Positions 3,531 to 59,086 of a stretch of DNA of 64,000 bases are shown piece by piece. The DNA comes from Qipengyuania sp. (GTDB lineage Bacteria; Pseudomonadota; Alphaproteobacteria; Sphingomonadales; Sphingomonadaceae). The notes under the pieces are model-generated. The model searched no databases, was not told where the DNA came from, and worked only from the letters and a program-made list of their open reading frames with translations. Position 1 is the stretch's first letter. The number at the start of each line of letters is the position of its first letter. Where the stretch lies: NCBI RefSeq assembly GCF_042095715.1, contig NZ_JBELMO010000003.1, positions 66,779-130,778 of the forward strand, written 5' to 3'. The position numbers were made by a program, and so were the translations under genes.

Positions 3531-3745
3531 GCTCGCCCGCCCGTTCCCATTATCTGATCGAAAGGATGTTTCCAGGTTTCTCCGGCCGGCATCTTCCGGT
3601 CCGGTCGGGCGCGCTTCGCGTGTCGAGCCGTTATGATGAAATGCGTCCGGGCCCTGTGCTCAACAGCCAGGAACCGGACGCTAATCATTGGGAAGGCTAA
3701 TGCACATCCCGTTGGTGATTCACGAAGAACCGTCCTCGAATGCGA

Positions 3746-17269: not shown

Positions 17270-17968
17270 TCAGTCCCCGTTGACGAAGCTGACGATCTGC
17301 CAGCCGTCACCGACCGGGGCGACGCGCAGGCGATAGTCTAGCGGCGAGCGCAGCATCGCCGTTTCGATGTAGCCCTGCGTCCCATCGGCGAGCGTCACTT
17401 TCTGAAACGTCCCCGCCGGGTCGAGACCGTCCGTCAGGGCTACTGCATCCCAGCTTACCGTGGCCAGTTGCGGGCCATCCGCCGCCGCGGCGGAGCGCAG
17501 CGGCACATCCTTGCCCGTGACGATCATGGAACGTGTCGGGTCAAGATCGTCCATCGGCTGCGCCGCGTACCAGGGCATCACCATCTCGCCATTGTCCGCC
17601 CGCGCGCAGCCCAACATCGTGGCCGAATCGAGAGCGCGCCACAGCTGGCCGTCCTTGTCCGACAGCCGTTCGCGAAGCGTCACCAGCCCCGCCCCGCCCC
17701 CGAAATCGAGCTGGACGTCGGCGCTGGTATTGCTGAGGAGAAGGTTTGCGTCCCGCATCCGGACCGCGTTTTCCAACGCCAGGAAGAACGCCTTCGCACC
17801 CGGCAGCTCGATACATTCGTTGCGGGGTTCGAAGCGCCCCTGAGGCGCCGCGGGCGTCGGTGCGGCGGCGACGGCATCCGCATCGCCCTCGGTCGGACCG
17901 TCCGCCGGCTGCCCGCATGCGGCCAGCGCGGCCAGGGCCATGGCGCTCAAGGCTCCGGCAATTCGCAT
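17270..17968 (-). CDS. Hypothetical lipoprotein with C-terminal SH3-like domain
   Basis: Lipobox LAAC; C-terminal VPLRSAAAADGPQLATV..FQKVTLADGTQGYI resembles bacterial SH3. Confidence 0.7.
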   Translation of the reverse strand: MRIAGALSAMALAALAACGQPADGPTEGDADAVAAAPTPAAPQGRFEPRNECIELPGAKAFFLALENAVRMRDANLLLSNTSADVQLDFGGGAGLVTLRERLSDKDGQLWRALDSATMLGCARADNGEMVMPWYAAQPMDDLDPTRSMIVTGKDVPLRSAAAADGPQLATVSWDAVALTDGLDPAGTFQKVTLADGTQGYIETAMLRSPLDYRLRVAPVGDGWQIVSFVNGD

Positions 17969-18148: not shown

Positions 18149-19606
18149 CTACTCCGCCGCTTCGCGCGCATCAGCGATCTGCGCAACATCGTCGCCCGTG
18201 TAGCGCGGCGCACTTTCCACCAGCGCCACCTCCTCGATCTCGCGTTTGCCGATCTCGATGCCCTTGTCCTTCATTTTCTTGGCGGACACGAGAACTCTCG
18301 ATTCAAAGCTCCGGTGGAAATCGTTGTAGCTCGACACGGCCCGTCCGAGATGCGTTCCCATCTTACCCAAATCCTCAGTAACCTTGGCAAGCCGGTCATA
18401 AAGTTCGCCGCCTAGTCTCCCGATCTCCTTGGCTTCTTGGGCCATCTTATCCTGCCGCCACACCTGCGCCACCGTGCGCGCGATGGCGACGAGATTGGTG
18501 GGCGTCGCCAGCAGCACCTTGTTGCGAAAGGCGAAATCCCACAGCTCCGGATCGGCCTCCAGCGCGGCGGCCACAAAATGCTCGCCGGGCACGAACATCA
18601 CGACATAATCGGGCGCGTCGTCGAACTGGCTCTGGTAACTCTTGGACCCCAGCGTCTGGACGTGGTTCTTCATCGCGCGCGCATGCAGATCCATGTGCCG
18701 CTTGCGCTCGCCATCGTCTTCCGCCTCGAACGCGGCCTGATAGGCGTTTAGCGAGACCTTGGCGTCGATCACCAGCTTCTTCTGGCCCGGCACGTTGACG
18801 ATGGCATCGGGCCGCAGCCGGCCCTCCTCGGTTTCCATCGAATGTTCGAGATGGAAATCGGTATGTTCGGCGAGGCCACATTGCTCCAGCACGTTCTGCA
18901 ACGCCCGCTCGCCCCAGCGCCCGCGCGCCTTGGGCGCGTTGGTCAGCGAATTGCCGAGCCTCTGCGCCTCGCGCCGGACCTCTTCCTGCCCCGCTTTCAT
19001 GGACTCGATCAGCCCGGTGAGCTGGCCGAAGGCATCCACACGCTTGGCCTCCAGCGCCCCCACCTGATCCTCATAGGCCTTGAGGCGCGCGCCGACGGGT
19101 TCGAGCAGCGCCTTCAGTTTTTCCTCGCTCGCCTTTTCGGAGTGGCCCAGCCGTTCGGCGGCCCGCTCGATCAGCGATTCCTGCGCCTTGGTCAGAACGG
19201 CATGACCGGTGTTCTGAAATTCCTTGAGCAGGGCTTCGCGCGCCTCCACCAGCAAACGCTTCTGCTCGTCGAAATTGGCGGTCTTTTCCTTGAGCGTTGC
19301 CAGTTCGGACCCGAGCGCGGCATTCTCCCGCCGCTGCGCATCGAGCGCGGCCTCCTGCGCACCGCGTATCTGGCGCAGTTCGGCATCGAGCGCATCCGCC
19401 CGCTCCGCGCGCACGGAGGCGTTTTCCAGCTCCACGATGGCGCGGCGAAACTTCTCGTCCAGCGCCTTCGCCTCCGCATCGCGCTCCCCATGCCGCGCCC
19501 GCCATTCAGCCACGGGCCGCCCCCCGAGAAACCAGCCGACAGCAAGCCCCGCCAGCAGGGCAACAATGACGAAAATGATCGCAAGCATGTCCATGCGCGG
19601 GAACAT
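18149..19606 (-). CDS. rmuC: DNA recombination protein RmuC
   Basis: N-terminal TM helix, coiled coil, RGRWGE, RPDAIV..IDAK and MFVPGE. Confidence 0.92.
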   Translation of the reverse strand: MFPRMDMLAIIFVIVALLAGLAVGWFLGGRPVAEWRARHGERDAEAKALDEKFRRAIVELENASVRAERADALDAELRQIRGAQEAALDAQRRENAALGSELATLKEKTANFDEQKRLLVEAREALLKEFQNTGHAVLTKAQESLIERAAERLGHSEKASEEKLKALLEPVGARLKAYEDQVGALEAKRVDAFGQLTGLIESMKAGQEEVRREAQRLGNSLTNAPKARGRWGERALQNVLEQCGLAEHTDFHLEHSMETEEGRLRPDAIVNVPGQKKLVIDAKVSLNAYQAAFEAEDDGERKRHMDLHARAMKNHVQTLGSKSYQSQFDDAPDYVVMFVPGEHFVAAALEADPELWDFAFRNKVLLATPTNLVAIARTVAQVWRQDKMAQEAKEIGRLGGELYDRLAKVTEDLGKMGTHLGRAVSSYNDFHRSFESRVLVSAKKMKDKGIEIGKREIEEVALVESAPRYTGDDVAQIADAREAAE

Positions 19607-19728
19607 AGCCGGAACGGGAGGTGTAGGAAAGGCCAGAAAATCCAGCTTTCCCCGGAATTCGGAATTCTTATCGCTTGCGCGCGTCGGTTACGGCGCACCC
19701 GCTTTGGGCTATTCCGAAATTGCCGCTC

Positions 19729-19758
19729 AACGTCTGAAATTGGGTGGAAAGCGGAAGT
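19729..19758 (+). repeat. Imperfect palindromic repeat unit U1
   Basis: aacgtctgaaattgggtggaaagcggaagt; aligns with the units at 20103, 20198 and 21871. Confidence 0.7.
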
Positions 19759-20096
19759 CACCGACCGCTGATTGTTTGCTGCAATCCCGCTCGATAGCGC
19801 TCTAGGTATCGTTCCGCTGCAATGCGCTTCCGTCTAGCACCATGCCAGCCCCACAGCAGACTAAAGGGAATGAGCAACATGGGCAGGCAGCCCCAAAGTG
19901 CTTCCGGGAGGTTCAGCGGGAAGACCACGTAGGCTGACAGTGCGACAAACCCGCAGAACGACATGCTGCTCAAGGTTAACATGACGCGCTCCGTCCCCCT
20001 TTCGGCTGACGGCGGCACAAACGGTTGCACACCTAGTGGACGCGTTCGCTGGGAATAGAGCATGGGCATCAGTAAAGAATGCCAAATCGCTCGCAT
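19758..20096 (-). CDS. Orphan 112-aa two-TM protein bracketed by repeat units
   Basis: MRAIWHSLLM...SMSFCGFVALSAYVVFPLNLPEALWGCLPMLLIPFSLLWGWHGARRKR; the ATG is 6 nt from U2 and the stop touches U1; atypical codon usage. Confidence 0.5.
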   Translation of the reverse strand: MRAIWHSLLMPMLYSQRTRPLGVQPFVPPSAERGTERVMLTLSSMSFCGFVALSAYVVFPLNLPEALWGCLPMLLIPFSLLWGWHGARRKRIAAERYLERYRAGLQQTISGR

Positions 20097-20102
20097 GCTC
20101 GC

Positions 20103-20225
20103 AATGTCCGTAATGGGGTCGTTTGCTGACAGTCCGGATTTGGGCCAATACAAACCAAAGCGGACGGACGCTGATGGACAGCTTCCCAAGCTTCGCGAAC
20201 GACCGATATGGGTGGATAGCTGGCA
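20103..20225 (+). repeat. Mosaic of repeat units U2 (20103-20132) and U3 (20198-20225) with a related internal hairpin
   Basis: aatgtccgtaatggggtcgtttgctgacag and aacgaccgatatgggtggatagctggca; the spacer contains gtccg...cggac. Confidence 0.72.
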
Positions 20226-20395
20226 AAGGATTACAGTCGAAAGCGTCTTCCCCTCTGGCCTAGGGCTGTTGAGCTGTTTGCTTTTGTCTGAACCACTGAT
20301 ACTGGCAATTGCGTTCAAGCCACAGCCAAGTGGGCTGCGCCATTGGCACTCGCCTTCCTGCCATTTGATCGATTGCAGCGCTTAGACCCAACACT

Positions 20396-21697
20396 ATGAC
20401 TTCACGAGAAACTACGCGCCTGTTCGCACTGCCGGACGATGAGGGCCGTGCCGAACGCGCTTCATTTTCTGACGTTGCGCACCGCCTCGCCTTCGGGGCG
20501 ATCGGATGGCCGTGGCTGCTATTCAGTCTGTGGGGCGGAACGAAGGCGTCAAAACAGCGGCTACTCGCGCGCATCGGACTGAATGAAAACTCGCTCCCCA
20601 ATCTCGGCAGTTGGAAGGCGGACACGGGTTTCCTTCATCGGATCGTCGATACGGTTGAAGAGCTTCGCCCTCAGGTTGTGGTCGAACTTGGCGCTGGGGC
20701 CTCGACACTTGTATGCGCCAAGGCACTGGCCCGGAACGGGGGTGGGCGACTTGTCAGTTTCGACCAGCACAAAGACTTCGTCGAAGCGACGGCACGCTGG
20801 ATTGAAGACGAAGGGGCGAAAGCTGATCTGCGTTGGGCGCCTCTTTCGAGCGAAGTAAATGACTGGCCCGGACGATGGTATTGCCTCCACGACATACCCG
20901 ATCGGATCGACCTCATAATCATCGACGGACCGCCGTGGACGGTCCATCCCTTTGTCCGAGGCGCTGCGGAATGCCTTTTTGATCGCCTCACACCCAACGG
21001 ACAAGTCCTGCTCGATGATGCCGCGCGTCCGGGAGAACGGGTCATTGCCAGGCGTTGGGCAAGAGATTGGCCCGAAATAACCTTCGAACGGGCAAGTGGT
21101 AGTACAAAAGGGACCCTCGTCGGGCGCAAACTGGATAATACCGGGGCTTCGGCTGCGCATATCACTTTGGTGAATGACAATCAGCCGCACGGAAGTTGGC
21201 GTCGGGCAGCAGCAATGCTCGCGCTTTTTGGTGCGGGCTGGATGGCAAACGGACTGATAGGCGATCTTGCCGAGCCGGCAGTTGCGGCTTCGATTGTGGA
21301 TGAGGCGCACGCCTCCGACGCGGCTAGCCGAGCGAGGCAGGCAATGATCTCGCTCGAAGAGTCGGAGCAGCTAGATCGCCGGGAGATTGCACAAACTACC
21401 GGTCTTGGCCTTCCCGATCTGCCTTCGGGGTGGAAGGTAAGCGACGTGCAACTCTTTCCGTCCGACCTAGGCAATTCGCTGACGGTAACCTTGATCACTC
21501 AAAGAGGTGAACACCTGTCGCTGTTTGCGGCGCGCGCCGAGACCCCTGCGGAGGAGTTGCCTCTCATGGAGCAGCGCGAAGAGAACGCCATTGCATATTG
21601 GGAGGAAGGTCCGCTGGCATATGCTCTTGTTGGCGAAATGGAAGCTGAGAGGCTTCTACGGTATGCTGCGCAGCTGAGTGAAACGCGGCAAAAGTAA
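20396..21697 (+). CDS. Class I SAM-dependent methyltransferase fused via a TM helix to an anti-sigma-factor-like C-terminal domain
   Basis: VVELGAGAS, IIDGPP and LLDD motifs; TM RRAAAMLALFGAGWMAN; C-terminal LPDLPSGWKVSDVQLFPS..SLF..AYWEEGPLAYALVGE. Confidence 0.8.
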   Translation: MTSRETTRLFALPDDEGRAERASFSDVAHRLAFGAIGWPWLLFSLWGGTKASKQRLLARIGLNENSLPNLGSWKADTGFLHRIVDTVEELRPQVVVELGAGASTLVCAKALARNGGGRLVSFDQHKDFVEATARWIEDEGAKADLRWAPLSSEVNDWPGRWYCLHDIPDRIDLIIIDGPPWTVHPFVRGAAECLFDRLTPNGQVLLDDAARPGERVIARRWARDWPEITFERASGSTKGTLVGRKLDNTGASAAHITLVNDNQPHGSWRRAAAMLALFGAGWMANGLIGDLAEPAVAASIVDEAHASDAASRARQAMISLEESEQLDRREIAQTTGLGLPDLPSGWKVSDVQLFPSDLGNSLTVTLITQRGEHLSLFAARAETPAEELPLMEQREENAIAYWEEGPLAYALVGEMEAERLLRYAAQLSETRQK

Positions 21698-21870
21698 AGT
21701 GCGATGCCCGACATGATCGATCCGCACAAATCCGCCAGGTCGATACCTGAGAGACCGCTTGCGGCCATTTAGACCCACCAAAGGCTGGTCGGCACAATAT
21801 AGATCACCCAGTCATAAACGAAGTCAAACACGCGACCGTCCTTTCCATGGGACAGCCTACCGCGCCAACC

Positions 21871-21897
21871 AATGTCCGCAATGGGTCGATAGCTGAA
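21871..21897 (+). repeat. Imperfect palindromic repeat unit U4
   Basis: aatgtccgcaatgggtcgatagctgaa; same orientation as U1-U3. Confidence 0.72.
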
Positions 21898-21922
21898 ACG
21901 ATTTGATCCGCGATTACGCGGT

Positions 21923-22054
21923 TCAGCTGTTCTTGATCGTTTCGAGGCCCTTGATCCCGCCAGGCTTGAGGCTCGGCTGCGATGCATTCGTTTTGACCTT
22001 TTCCGCCTTGGGCTTGCGGATTTCACGGTTCGATCGCTTTTGACTTTTTGCCAT
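21923..22054 (-). CDS. 43-aa basic small protein
   Basis: MAKSQKRSNREIRKPKAEKVKTNASQPSLKPGGIKGLETIKNS; strong AAAGGA RBS. Confidence 0.7.
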   Translation of the reverse strand: MAKSQKRSNREIRKPKAEKVKTNASQPSLKPGGIKGLETIKNS

Positions 22055-22100
22055 CGTCTTTTCCTTTGTAAGTTCTTTAGCGCTTGAATGGGGCCGGCAT

Positions 22101-22385
22101 TCAATCGTCGGCGCGGCCCCGGTCGGGGTTCTCGTTCGCCGCTTCGCCCTCGTTTTCCGCTGAAGCCGCATCGCAGGGGCCGGCGTAGCTGCCATAGATG
22201 ATGGTCTGGGGAGCGAGGGGGTTGGCTATGGTCGCACCGGTGGGGGCGATATCGCGCAGGTTCCGGATCTCCCGCGCGTATCTGGCGATCCGGCCGAAAT
22301 GATCGCTCGAGGACGCATCCCCGCCCGACGCACCCAACCGCATCACCTCTTCCTGATGAGCACCAAGCAGTTCGTTGAGATCCAT
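22101..22385 (-). CDS. Hypothetical protein (94 aa)
   Basis: MDLNELLGAHQEEVMRLG..HFGRIARYAREIR; AAGGA RBS. Confidence 0.7.
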   Translation of the reverse strand: MDLNELLGAHQEEVMRLGASGGDASSSDHFGRIARYAREIRNLRDIAPTGATIANPLAPQTIIYGSYAGPCDAASAENEGEAANENPDRGRADD

Positions 22386-22488
22386 GGCATCGTCCTTTTC
22401 GGTTCCTGCCCAAAAATTGGGACGTCTCGTGCTCCAGGGCGGGCAGCGCCCGAAGAGCCGACTTCGCGACCTCTTGTCGCGCATGCCG

Positions 22489-22746
22489 TTAGTTGGCGGC
22501 GAGTCGGTGCAACTTCGCCCGCACCTTGCTGGCGCCGGCTGTGCTTTCCGTCGCCAGCAGCAGAGGCTGCCCGCCCAGTTCCGCATCGTCGCTGTTTAGG
22601 AATGCAATTGCGGCATCCCTGCCCAGCGAAAGGAAGGCGAAACTGGTGATATCACCCTGCCTCGCGGCCTGATCGGGAGAAAGCGGAGAGGGCTTGGTAC
22701 GCCTGCGCCAATGAGCAGCCGGGGCGCGGGTCTTTTCTTCGGTCAT
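22489..22746 (-). CDS. DUF2384 / Xre-MbcA-ParS C-terminal-like protein
   Basis: LSPDQAARQGDITSFAFLSLGRDAAIAFLNSDDAELGGQPLLLA resembles the A..FL...N..LGG..PL.L antitoxin fold. Confidence 0.65.
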   Translation of the reverse strand: MTEEKTRAPAAHWRRRTKPSPLSPDQAARQGDITSFAFLSLGRDAAIAFLNSDDAELGGQPLLLATESTAGASKVRAKLHRLAAN

Positions 22747-22780
22747 AGAGGCCAGATCCCTGTGTAGGTTCCACGGAAGG

Positions 22781-22873
22781 TCAATTGATCATCCACCAGA
22801 TCAGGAGCGCCATTGCGGCCAGCAACGCGAAGATCGAGAGATATTGGGGCCCGGTATTGCCGCGAGGATTCAC
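22781..22873 (-). CDS. 30-aa single-TM small protein
   Basis: GTG start overlaps the upstream stop (GTGA); MNPRGNTGPQYLSIFALLAAMALLIWWMIN. Confidence 0.45.
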   Translation of the reverse strand: MNPRGNTGPQYLSIFALLAAMALLIWWMIN

Positions 22874-23097
22874 GGCGAAACAGGCTCTTGCTTCGCCATG
22901 CGGCGGGCCTGCGCAATCGCATCGGCGAGCGTGGTGTATCGATAACCGCCCACGAGATAGGTTTCGGTCATCTGGCGCACGATTCCGTGCATATCCGGCG
23001 GGACATCGGACGGCTGACCGCCCGCTTCGCCCGGTTGCGAAACAGTCTGGATATCGCTGGCGTTTAGCGTGGGACATCGACCGGCTCCCTTTTGCAA
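22870..23097 (-). CDS. Small hypothetical protein; start uncertain
   Basis: C-terminal GIVRQMTETYLVGGYRYTTLADAIAQARR reads like a compact conserved domain. Confidence 0.6.
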   Translation of the reverse strand: MQKGAGRCPTLNASDIQTVSQPGEAGGQPSDVPPDMHGIVRQMTETYLVGGYRYTTLADAIAQARRMAKQEPVSP

Positions 23098-23278
23098 GCG
23101 GGAGCTCTAAGTCTCTCAGTCGAGGGCGCTCACAAGCAGGATGCCTCTTCGATGATCCCGAAATGGGGAGCCGGGGGTCGAATACAAGGTGCCAGACGCC
23201 GTGGAGGCGCGATCTTGCAGCGTGCGGGCGCGGTCACCGCAACGGGATCGGTCGCCCTGCCTGCGCGCAATTGAGGGT

Positions 23279-23845
23279 TTACGCCGCCTCGCGCAGCTTC
23301 TTAAGCTTTTTCAGCGCCATCTGCCGCTTGAGGCGGCTCAGGTGGTCGATGAACAGCACGCCTTCCAGATGGTCCATCTCATGCTGGATGCAGGTGGCCA
23401 TCATGCCTTCCAGCGCTTCCTCGTGGGTGTTGCCTTCCAGATCCTGCCAGCGCACGCGGCAGGCGGCGGGGCGGTCCACGTCGGCGTAGATGTCGGGGAC
23501 CGAGAGGCAGCCTTCCTGATAGGTGGAAAGCTCTTCCGCCGGATCGAGGATTTCGGGGTTCACGAAGATGCGCGGTTCGTTCTTCGTGGGCTGGTGGTAA
23601 TGCTTGTGGCCGTCATGATGACATTCCTCGGGCTCGGCATCCGGATCGTCGGGCTGGAGGTCGATCACGAGGATGCGCTTGGGCACGCCGACTTGGATCG
23701 CGGCGAGGCCAATGCCGTTGGCATCGTACATCGTCTCGAACATGTCATCGACGAGCGTCTTGAGCTCCGCATCGAACTCTGTGACGGGTTCGGACACGGT
23801 TTTCAGCCGGGGGTCCGGCACTTCCAGGATTTCACGAATGGCCAT
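23279..23845 (-). CDS. def: Peptide deformylase
   Basis: GIGLAAIQVG, EGCLSV and QHEMDHLEG. Confidence 0.96.
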   Translation of the reverse strand: MAIREILEVPDPRLKTVSEPVTEFDAELKTLVDDMFETMYDANGIGLAAIQVGVPKRILVIDLQPDDPDAEPEECHHDGHKHYHQPTKNEPRIFVNPEILDPAEELSTYQEGCLSVPDIYADVDRPAACRVRWQDLEGNTHEEALEGMMATCIQHEMDHLEGVLFIDHLSRLKRQMALKKLKKLREAA

Positions 23846-23902
23846 GCGGGGCGATTTAGTGCGTGCGGGGGATTCGTTCAATCCCGCCGGAAATGGGGAG
23901 GG

Positions 23903-28649: not shown

Positions 28650-28725
28650 GGGCGCTTAGCTCAGTTGGTAGAGCATCTCGTTTACACCGAGAGGGTCGGC
28701 GGTTCGAGCCCGTCAGCGCCCACCA
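28650..28725 (+). tRNA. tRNA-Val (TAC)
   Basis: 76-nt cloverleaf; anticodon loop tt-TAC-ac; GGTTCGAG T-loop; encoded CCA. Confidence 0.97.

Positions 28726-50595: not shown

Positions 50596-50671
<76 letters not shown>

Positions 50672-59010: not shown

Positions 59011-59086
<76 letters not shown>

Follow-up and report, generated by a model that had tools for sequence, protein, structure and literature searches.

The island between rmuC and def in a 64-kb stretch of Qipengyuania sp. DNA (contig NZ_JBELMO010000003.1; hereafter the window) carries related units of 27-36 bp, which are probably the sites of a site-specific cassette-array system served by a small tyrosine recombinase. Judged from sequence comparison, the island itself would be an orphan array of that system. 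A preliminary description of this DNA had placed four such units on the + strand, at 19729, 20103, 20198 and 21871 (U1 to U4), and the strings are located exactly there. It had also proposed that they serve an uncharacterised cassette system as sites of recombination, with the recombinase acting in trans. This proposal is supported by co-oriented arrays of the same family in other genomes, by exchange of segments bounded by units, by a recombinase clade that co-varies with the repeat and by a break inside U1 in a related strain; its reasoning from integron attC sites did not hold.

A widespread family of 12-6-12 sites

The minus strand through U2-U3 hinted at a widespread palindromic repeat and gave entry to the family: an exact scan with AATGTCCGCWWTGGGKSGAWAGC (23 nt) matched 10 viral contigs and at least 120 genome loci. 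The family statistics rest on 120 genome loci of 8 kb each among the matches listed. Their hosts are mostly Sphingomonadales (Sphingomicrobium, Allosphingosinicella, Sphingomonas and Altericroceibacterium), joined by Caulobacterales, Hyphomicrobiales, Kiloniella, Xanthomonadales and a few AT-rich metagenome-assembled genomes (MAGs). The collected copies were used to build a covariance model and nhmmer profiles. The unit matched no Rfam family in a gathering scan of the window and an E-value scan of eight loci.

The canonical site reads AATGTCCGC-WWT-GGGTSG-AAA-GCGGACATT and thus consists of two inverted arms of 12 bp with an asymmetric centre of 6 bp between them. The consensus of 136 aligned copies is nCnAATGTCCGC-AAT-GGGTCG-AAA-GCGGACATTnGn, with the centre GGGTCG in 201 units and GGGTGG in 160. 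The right arm complements the left arm, though the search pattern left it unconstrained. With its arms AATGTCCGCWWT and AAAGCGGACATT and its 6-bp asymmetric centre, the unit has the layout of a tyrosine-recombinase core site. The sites dif, lox and FRT are of this kind, with inverted 11-13-bp arms and an asymmetric 6-8-bp centre. Many loci also hold split or compound sites, in which left arm, GGGTCG and TTATC... are followed after 20-40 nt by GGAATGGGTGG and a right arm (for example L134:15938-16017, L134:5432-5489 and L044:645-667, L numbers denoting loci), and half-units that lack the left arm recur in family loci.

Two side observations concern the units themselves. Three IMG/VR contigs (L002, L006 and L009) share an identical left end of ~100 nt followed by a unit at ~105, which places the unit near a contig or prophage boundary. 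Furthermore, translation of the units in three frames gives the recurrent peptides NVRFGSKADI, MSAFDPKRT, CPLSTHCGH and WVESGH (in the list of open reading frames (ORFs) of L036 and at the C-terminus of P0148); in annotations, these peptides raise the number of spurious ORFs and extend real genes falsely at the C-terminus.

Co-oriented arrays with cassette-sized spacing

The 8-kb genome loci contain 339 copies. Among the 89 loci with two or more of them, 79 are purely of one orientation, and copies in the majority orientation outnumber those in the minority by 286 to 12 (p 3e-69). Dense arrays hold 17 units in 6 kb (L036) or 16 units in 8 kb (L079). Consecutive co-oriented units are separated by a median of 527 nt (interquartile range 325-964); 30 doublets are less than 60 nt apart, and almost no gaps fall at 60-150 nt. 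In L134 and L137, about one small gene is called per interval, on either strand and mostly without a Pfam family. The DNA between units has a G+C content (GC) of 0.582, compared with 0.630 at more than 1.5 kb from any unit.

The units are almost always intergenic and occur in all kinds of intergenic context; with crude gene calls, 30 of the 87 copies have a gene 3' end within 60 nt. The preliminary description had looked to a fixed orientation of genes relative to the sites. This was not found: 21 units point in the same direction as the neighbouring gene and 23 in the opposite one, so that the two directions are independent.

Replication-strand bias was considered as a source of the co-orientation and rejected. 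Unit direction shows no correlation with GC skew, strand-corrected skew or coding strand, and polarity flips several times inside 20 kb of Sphingomonas rhizophila. The arrays of this species (L134) also contain genes for an IS6-family transposase and a serine resolvase (L134:7701-8417 and 17355-17933), and the insertion sequence (IS) sits within a unit-free stretch of ~2.3 kb where the array polarity changes.

A small tyrosine recombinase beside the sites

All-against-all clustering of the ORFs in the 120 listed loci, which had been ascertained by the site, brought out one notable recurrent family, a protein of ~200 amino acids in five unrelated loci. In three of these five, a unit lies 6-10 nt after its stop codon. 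The protein belongs to the phage-integrase family (Pfam PF00589, E 8e-21), with R, K, HxxR, H and Y invariant. It is 197-204 amino acids long, with ~40 residues ahead of the catalytic domain and PF00589 covering that domain only. Its closest solved relative is the catalytic domain of XerD, and its best NCBIfam matches are far below cut-off. The protein database holds thousands of relatives, mostly on metagenome contigs of ~1 kb and named just 'tyrosine-type recombinase/integrase'. No other enzyme family was enriched in the ORF clustering, which did not include a Pfam scan for Y1/HUH. The preliminary description had also allowed for a recombinase of the HUH type or a REP-associated tyrosine transposase (RAYT; REP, repetitive extragenic palindrome); this option gained no support, the gene flanked by units being a tyrosine recombinase of the phage-integrase family.

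Loci ascertained by the protein instead of the site (L134-L138, L148 and L149) have units beside the recombinase in every case. In Sphingomonas rhizophila (L134), for example, the gene is preceded at a distance of 155 nt by a '-' unit and followed 1 nt past its stop by a '+' unit, and thirteen '+' units are found downstream. L137 has six '-' units ahead of the gene and eleven '+' units after it, and the remaining five loci show the same polarity pattern. In 80 metagenome loci collected by recombinase homology, units accompany all 24 recombinases that are 69% or more identical to the query, as opposed to 3 of the 56 more distant ones (Fisher p 2e-17). Upstream of the recombinase, 36 units are '-' and 5 '+'; downstream, 31 are '+' and 1 is '-'. 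The repeat and one clade of small tyrosine recombinases thus vary together, as the preliminary description had suggested checking, and the polarity of the units flips at the recombinase gene.

Homologues on plasmids at ~60% identity are not accompanied by units. One of them, 60% identical and located on the Bosea sp. plasmid pNBC550 (L142:2800-2860, 3690-3730), lies between inverted repeats of ~35 bp that contain two GTCCGC motifs each (GAATGTCCGC-N16-GATGTCCGC / GCGGAC-N-GAAGCGGACATTC). These repeats hint that other clades of the recombinase have related cognate sites.

Cassettes shared between arrays

Direct comparison of arrays revealed modules that are delimited by units. L030 and L110 represent an orthologous site with flanks that are ~76% identical, and both carry a unit right after the stop codon of the upstream gene. 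L030 has one segment of 355 nt at this point, and L110 has four unrelated single-ORF segments of 316-549 nt, each bounded by units in the same orientation. Furthermore, cassette A of L044 encodes a lipoprotein and over 730 nt shares 88% identity with a segment of L091 in unrelated flanks. The homology starts at GGAATGGGTGGAAAGC in the upstream unit and ends at CAATGTCyGCAATGGGTCGAA in the downstream unit, in both cases at the unit centre. The adjacent cassette B of L044 matches L137, from a different metagenome, at 89% over 386 nt from unit to unit. Adjacent cassettes of L044 thus have different partners elsewhere, which argues for shuffling at the units.

Apparent excision joints in soil-metagenome contigs aligned to L036 were rejected as evidence: all of them fall at units, but one side spans only 20-34 nt, and the joints represent further copies of the repeat.

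Units in the rmuC-def island

The window features are as follows (strand in brackets).

18149-19606 (-): rmuC, the left core gene (Pfam RmuC, E 9e-96).
19695-19722 (+): U0, a possible relic half-unit (cacCCGCTTTGGGctattccgaaa), found as a CCGNWWTGGG match and 71% identical to 20134-20154.
19729-19757 (+): U1, a degenerate unit with the strain-level breakpoint (nhmmer E 0.06; cmsearch 10.8 bits).
19758-20096 (-): putative cassette 1, an orphan ORF of 112 amino acids that fills the U1-U2 interval, without a Pfam or NCBIfam match.
20103-20130 (+): U2, left arm and centre (AATGTCCGTAATGGGGTCG) with a right arm of GCTGAC type (cmsearch 11.7 bits; nhmmer E 1.5).
20131-20197 (+): U2-U3 spacer, which contains fragments of units (GTCCGGATTTGGG ... 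CCAAAGCGGAC), from reading the sequence.
20198-20224 (+): U3, centre and a right arm of GCTGGC type (nhmmer E 1.2-1.4).
20396-21697 (+): putative cassette 2, a class I S-adenosylmethionine-dependent methyltransferase of 433 amino acids with an anti-sigma-like tail (Pfam Methyltransf_24).
21868-21903 (+): U4, the only well-preserved unit, with canonical left arm and centre and a GCTGAA right arm (cmsearch 36.7 bits, E 1.8e-8; nhmmer E 7e-8).
21904-23152 (-): remainder of the island, small ORFs of low GC from the ORF list, without a Pfam or NCBIfam match and with no unit detected among them.
23153-23178 (+): U5, a possible relic unit (ATCCCGAAATGGGGAGCCGGGGGTCG) ~100 nt before the def stop, found as a CCGNWWTGGG match.
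23279-23881 (-): def, encoding peptide deformylase, the right core gene (NCBIfam E 4e-52; Pfam E 4e-57).

U4 is a strong member of the family, and U1-U3 read as weak, degenerate or hybrid copies. The four best nhmmer matches of the window are U4, U1, U3 and U2, all on the + strand and all inside the 3.7-kb island (19607-23278), in agreement with the preliminary description, which had seen them only there; given the first match, the chance of such clustering is ~2e-5. U3 was missed by the covariance model, and U0 and U5 were missed by the family models and are weak candidates. Over 25 nt, U3 shares 80% identity with U4, which also agrees with U2 at 15 of 16 positions in the 5' half. A 25-nt IUPAC consensus matches just U3 and U4 in the 64 kb and nothing in 100 shuffles. 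The shorter motif CCGNWWTGGG occurs six times on the + strand, five of them inside the island, and not at all on the - strand. U2, the spacer and U3 may together form one compound site; a U2-like unit followed by a similar next unit is also present on the Novosphingobium plasmid p1, and the fold of 20100-20228 is not significant (z -1.4).

The island is more AT-rich than its surroundings, as had been described (GC 0.54-0.60 vs 0.65-0.70), and the geometry of its first ORF was likewise confirmed: the ATG of cassette 1 lies 6 nt from U2, and its stop codon abuts U1. The GTTRRRY end that had been taken as an integron hallmark is carried by U1 alone among the window units. GTTRRR occurs in 2 of 375 family units, the family end being ATT, and its presence in U1 is due to chance.

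The methyltransferase has homologues of 55-85% identity across the Erythrobacteraceae. Its gene occupies three different loci in three genomes of this family, between rmuC and def in the window, between corA and an amino-acid permease gene, and between a methyltransferase gene and ribE (L145:6001-7302 and L147:6001-7308 in the two relatives), which suggests single-gene mobility by an unspecified route. Elsewhere in the window, Rfam matches comprise a terC RNA motif (65 bits) and three tRNA genes (176-236; 28650-28722; 50596-50668; 59014-59086).

Strain variants at the locus

The RmuC protein of the window has its closest relatives in Qipengyuania, at 81% identity, which places the organism in the Erythrobacteraceae close to this genus. 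Look-ups of its 485-, 481- and 479-residue forms gave no identical protein record. In Qipengyuania sp. YG27 (L132) the island is absent and the def-rmuC gap measures 216 nt; in a second Qipengyuania (L133) the gap holds one unrelated AT-rich orphan of 216 amino acids. Because these gaps differ, the rmuC-def interval is a variable spot and the 3.7 kb an insertion. Homology to the relatives is lost ~40 nt upstream of the start of rmuC, and on the other side it returns precisely at the stop codon of def (blastn of L132 and L133 from window position 23278), with U0 and U1 55-90 nt inside the left boundary.

The organism was detected in aquatic metagenomes. In run X5, which represents a strain of 95-99% similarity, one contig follows the window over 19659-19753 and departs from it directly after GGGTGGAAAGC in U1, and the next contig begins exactly at U2. 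Across runs X5-X8, the U1-U2 cassette is not covered and 20103-22100 is patchily covered. This is one strain-level breakpoint inside U1, read from contigs at low coverage. The strain comparison that the preliminary description had proposed thus places a break at a site on the left of the island, and its right edge does not coincide with a good unit. No joint at U1-U4 was seen in runs X1-X3, which is no argument against excision, since rare variants are lost from assembled contigs.

Two side observations were made at this locus. Contigs of runs X1 and X2 join window position 18941, in the interior of rmuC, to 23343, in the interior of def, skipping 4401 nt with a shorter side of 30 nt; the joint is probably a partial alignment of a contig from another species. 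In addition, the def-rmuC spacer of YG27 (L132:9785-10000) contains several copies of a different palindrome (cgtcatcctgaactcgtttcaggatcca; ggaccctgaaacaagttcagggtgacg). These fit the description of CGTC-tagged REPs (Di Nocera 2013, PMC3733652), differ in sequence from the units and have no close copy in the window.

A proposed cassette system and what weighs against it

We propose that the family is the cognate site of the clade of ~200-residue tyrosine recombinases in Sphingomonadales. The recombinase gene would lie between two inverted sites, with a co-oriented array extending from each side and one small gene of lower GC, in either orientation, between consecutive sites. The asymmetric 6-bp centre would give the site its direction, and the recombinase would exchange strands in or beside it. 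Recombination between direct sites would excise a cassette as a circle, which could integrate again at any site. Between the array arms of opposite orientation, recombination would invert the recombinase segment and keep the '- ... rec ... +' pattern. We infer that the recombinase acts on the units and that the window island arose by this route. The island would comprise two well-delimited cassettes and an unpunctuated remainder, with one good site (U4) and three degenerate or hybrid ones. It is most likely a small, partly decayed orphan array, with a counterpart in the clusters of attC sites lacking an integron integrase (CALINs).

Several observations weigh against this proposal. No recombination event was directly observed, and the position of the crossover is inconsistent: the junction falls at the unit centre in L044/L091 and in the X5 variant of U1, but at the outer arm edge in L044/L137, where the right arm beside the shared cassette is not conserved. 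The arms that flank one cassette are not significantly more complementary than arms of different units (6.26 vs 6.06 of 10 positions, p 0.08). RecA-dependent exchange between 30-bp repeats would yield similar mosaics bounded by units and is a live alternative. Single units occur on plasmids of Pantoea, Pseudomonas (including P. paraeruginosa) and Massilia, as well as in AT-rich gammaproteobacterial MAGs, with no recombinase nearby. In the window, U1-U3 match weakly when taken alone (nhmmer E 0.06-1.5, for a search of 1 Mb). The right 1.4 kb of the island yielded no convincing unit in a family-model scan and a motif search, and the right edge has only the weak relic at 23153-23178 near it. No homologue of the recombinase was found anywhere in the 64 kb, as had already been noted of an integrase. 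Finally, the nearest relatives, YG27 and the second Qipengyuania, lack units in 21 kb around rmuC, and the methyltransferase loci of the two relatives (L145 and L147) lack flanking units.

Alternative readings

It is possible, though rather unlikely, that the units are passive selfish palindromes, similar to REPs or miniature inverted-repeat transposable elements (MITEs), that accumulate in the intergenic spaces of islands. The mosaics would then stem from homologous recombination. The recombinase gene would be a mobile element that ends in the palindrome as terminal inverted repeats, with the scattered units as miniature derivatives of the element. The fold of the canonical unit speaks for such elements, as it is a perfect hairpin without conserved bulges (-12.8 kcal/mol, z -7.7). 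So do the near-exclusive placement of units in intergenic DNA of every context, the single copies without a recombinase across many Proteobacteria and the position of the recombinase between inverted copies, which resembles that of RAYTs and IS elements. The Bosea homologue between 35-bp inverted repeats containing GTCCGC fits as well.

The arms provide a further point in favour of passive palindromes. The arms come in two types, GTCCGC/GCGGAC and GGCAGC/GCTGCC, with two compensated base-pair changes between them. Among copies whose arms were not fixed by the search, 128 combine L1/R1, 8 L1/R2, 9 L2/R1 and 6 L2/R2, so that the types are partly matched within units (odds ratio 10.7). Palindromy is thus under some constraint, since two partly matched arm types exist. 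The two types could possibly reflect two recombinase specificities or attL/attR-like products. The second type (GCTGNN) is resembled by the right arms of U2 (GCTGAC), U3 (GCTGGC) and U4 (GCTGAA) and of the X5 allele of U1 (GCTGCC), which would explain why the window units are not self-complementary. The 'palindromic' character assigned to them in the preliminary description did not survive, as shuffled sequence folds at least as well (z 0.0 to +1.3 for U1-U4).

Against passive palindromes stands the orientation of the copies: REPs and REPINs (paired REPs) are typically inverted pairs, whereas the units are direct over many kilobases (286:12), with a polarity flip at the recombinase gene and cassette-sized intervals of about one gene each. 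Arm complementarity within a unit does not exceed that between units (6.15 vs 6.06 of 10), and the outer-arm pairs covary no more than shuffles. Among the recurrent families of the listed loci only the tyrosine recombinase stood out, in a clustering made without a Pfam search for Y1/HUH. As a whole, a protein-binding recombination site fits better than a hairpin selected for its structure, because there is a cognate recombinase, direct orientation, cassette spacing and modules bounded by units, and because neither an excess of complementarity within units nor covariation of the outer pairs is seen.

The suggestion that the units are REP-like was right in that they are abundant intergenic palindromes, but by tag, spacer and orientation they are neither GTAG REPs of the RAYT type nor CGTC REPs. 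The GTAG class was rejected for lack of the GTAG tag in the consensus (nCnAATGTCCGC...GCGGACATTnGn). According to Di Nocera 2013 (PMC3733652), CGTC-tagged REPs occur mainly in Alphaproteobacteria, 'lack a dedicated transposase' and consist of a CGTC/TGTC tag, an 8-9-bp stem starting with AT, a 4-5-nt loop and a CCA tail, mostly as head-to-head dimers. The units share a 9-bp stem that starts with AT. In contrast, their spacer is 12 nt (6 if TTT and AAA pair), the bases before the stem are variable and form no tag, and the copies in clusters are direct; the genuine CGTC REP of YG27 (cgtcatcctgaactcgtttcaggatcca) is also different. This class was rejected too.

An improbable reading is that only U4 is real, as a stray copy, with U1-U3 being chance resemblances and the island ordinary horizontally acquired DNA. 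The weak scores of U1-U3, the failure of the covariance model to find U3 and the unit-free methyltransferase loci of relatives would agree with it. It is at odds with the clustering of the four best matches of 64 kb within 3.7 kb on one strand (~2e-5), with the 80% identity of U3 and U4 over 25 nt and the absence of shuffle matches. The right arms of U2-U4 and of the X5 allele of U1 resemble the second arm type, the orphan ORF fits exactly between U1 and U2, and the X5 variant breaks inside U1.

We regard a role at the RNA level, as terminators or as hairpins that stabilise or process mRNA at gene ends, as very improbable. The 30 of 87 copies near gene 3' ends by crude calls and the stable canonical hairpin would suit it. 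Orientation, however, is independent of the adjacent gene (21 vs 23), the conserved asymmetric loop points the same way along the genome whichever strand the genes are on, there is no T-run and no Rfam match, and the window copies do not fold.

Classical attC sites are imperfect palindromes of 57-141 bp with R''-L''...L'-R' boxes, a GTTRRRY core and extrahelical bases in the single-stranded hairpin. Their presence here, as a CALIN, can be virtually dismissed: co-oriented arrays, tight ORF-site geometry and the GTTRRRY of U1 would agree with it, but the units measure 30-36 bp, GTTRRR is rare (2 of 375), a recombinase of ~200 amino acids nearest to the XerD catalytic domain has no room for the IntI-specific insertion, the window copies fold with z 0 to +1.3, genes lie in both orientations, and a search of 243 alphaproteobacterial genomes found no integron, In0 or CALIN (PMC4889954).

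Relation to known systems

If the proposal is right, the system would work most like integrons and the modules of Xer sites known as pdif. Integrons are the textbook case of recombinase-driven gene-cassette arrays, and the likeness is considerable: a tyrosine recombinase lies beside arrays of co-oriented short sites, intervals hold one small, mostly orphan gene, cassettes of ~0.3-1 kb are common to unrelated arrays, and orphan arrays without a recombinase occur, as in the window. The differences concern site, enzyme and layout. Here the sites are simple 12-6-12 palindromes of ~30 bp without R/L boxes, extrahelical bases or GTTRRRY, and the recombinase of ~200 amino acids lacks the IntI-specific domain. 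Arrays lie on both sides of its gene with opposite polarity, and cassette genes on either strand would not follow the logic of a common Pc promoter. The hosts are Alphaproteobacteria, in which integrons are reported absent (PMC4889954).

In dif and other Xer sites, two inverted recombinase-binding arms enclose a centre of 6 bp in an 11-6-11 layout, compared with 12-6-12 in the units. The pdif sites of Acinetobacter plasmids are of this 11-6-11 kind, alternate in orientation and are served by the host XerC/XerD. They too bound discrete gene modules that move between contexts, and XerD is the nearest solved relative of the recombinase described here. They differ in that the present system has a dedicated small recombinase at the array, direct repeats, long chromosomal arrays and a sequence unrelated to dif.

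REP/REPIN and RAYT systems share short, abundant intergenic palindromes and an enzyme gene between inverted copies; the units differ in forming direct clusters instead of head-to-head dimers, and the enzyme is a recombinase of the phage-integrase family, not an HUH transposase. Shufflons rearrange segments of a single gene via 19-bp sites. With them and with the FimB/FimE invertases the system has in common a small tyrosine recombinase of ~200 amino acids and a gene between inverted sites, so that inversions would be expected. In contrast to shufflons, its sites separate independent genes and are mostly direct. A literature search by sequence fragment and by topic, with limited access, found no description of these arrays; an earlier description may exist.

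Implications

For the window, a repeat that had lacked an explanation now points to how the rmuC-def island probably arose. If the proposed system is real, it would be behind many of the orphan-gene islets of low GC in Sphingomonadales genomes. It would also account for assembly breaks at arrays, in line with the recombinase contigs of metagenomes being mostly ~1 kb, and for the recurrent spurious ORFs that read through units. A compact pair of recombinase and site for genome engineering might also be gained.

In a survey of 243 alphaproteobacterial genomes, Cury et al. 2016 (PMC4889954) called the absence of integrons, In0 and CALINs 'extremely puzzling'. Sphingomonadales, and perhaps other Alphaproteobacteria, may possess a capture platform that is analogous but not homologous to integrons and is built of bidirectional arrays of single-gene cassettes, with the rmuC-def island as a decayed orphan array; to this broader statement we give slightly less than even credence. 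If true, a separate cassette system in Sphingomonadales would offer a testable answer to the missing alphaproteobacterial integrons.

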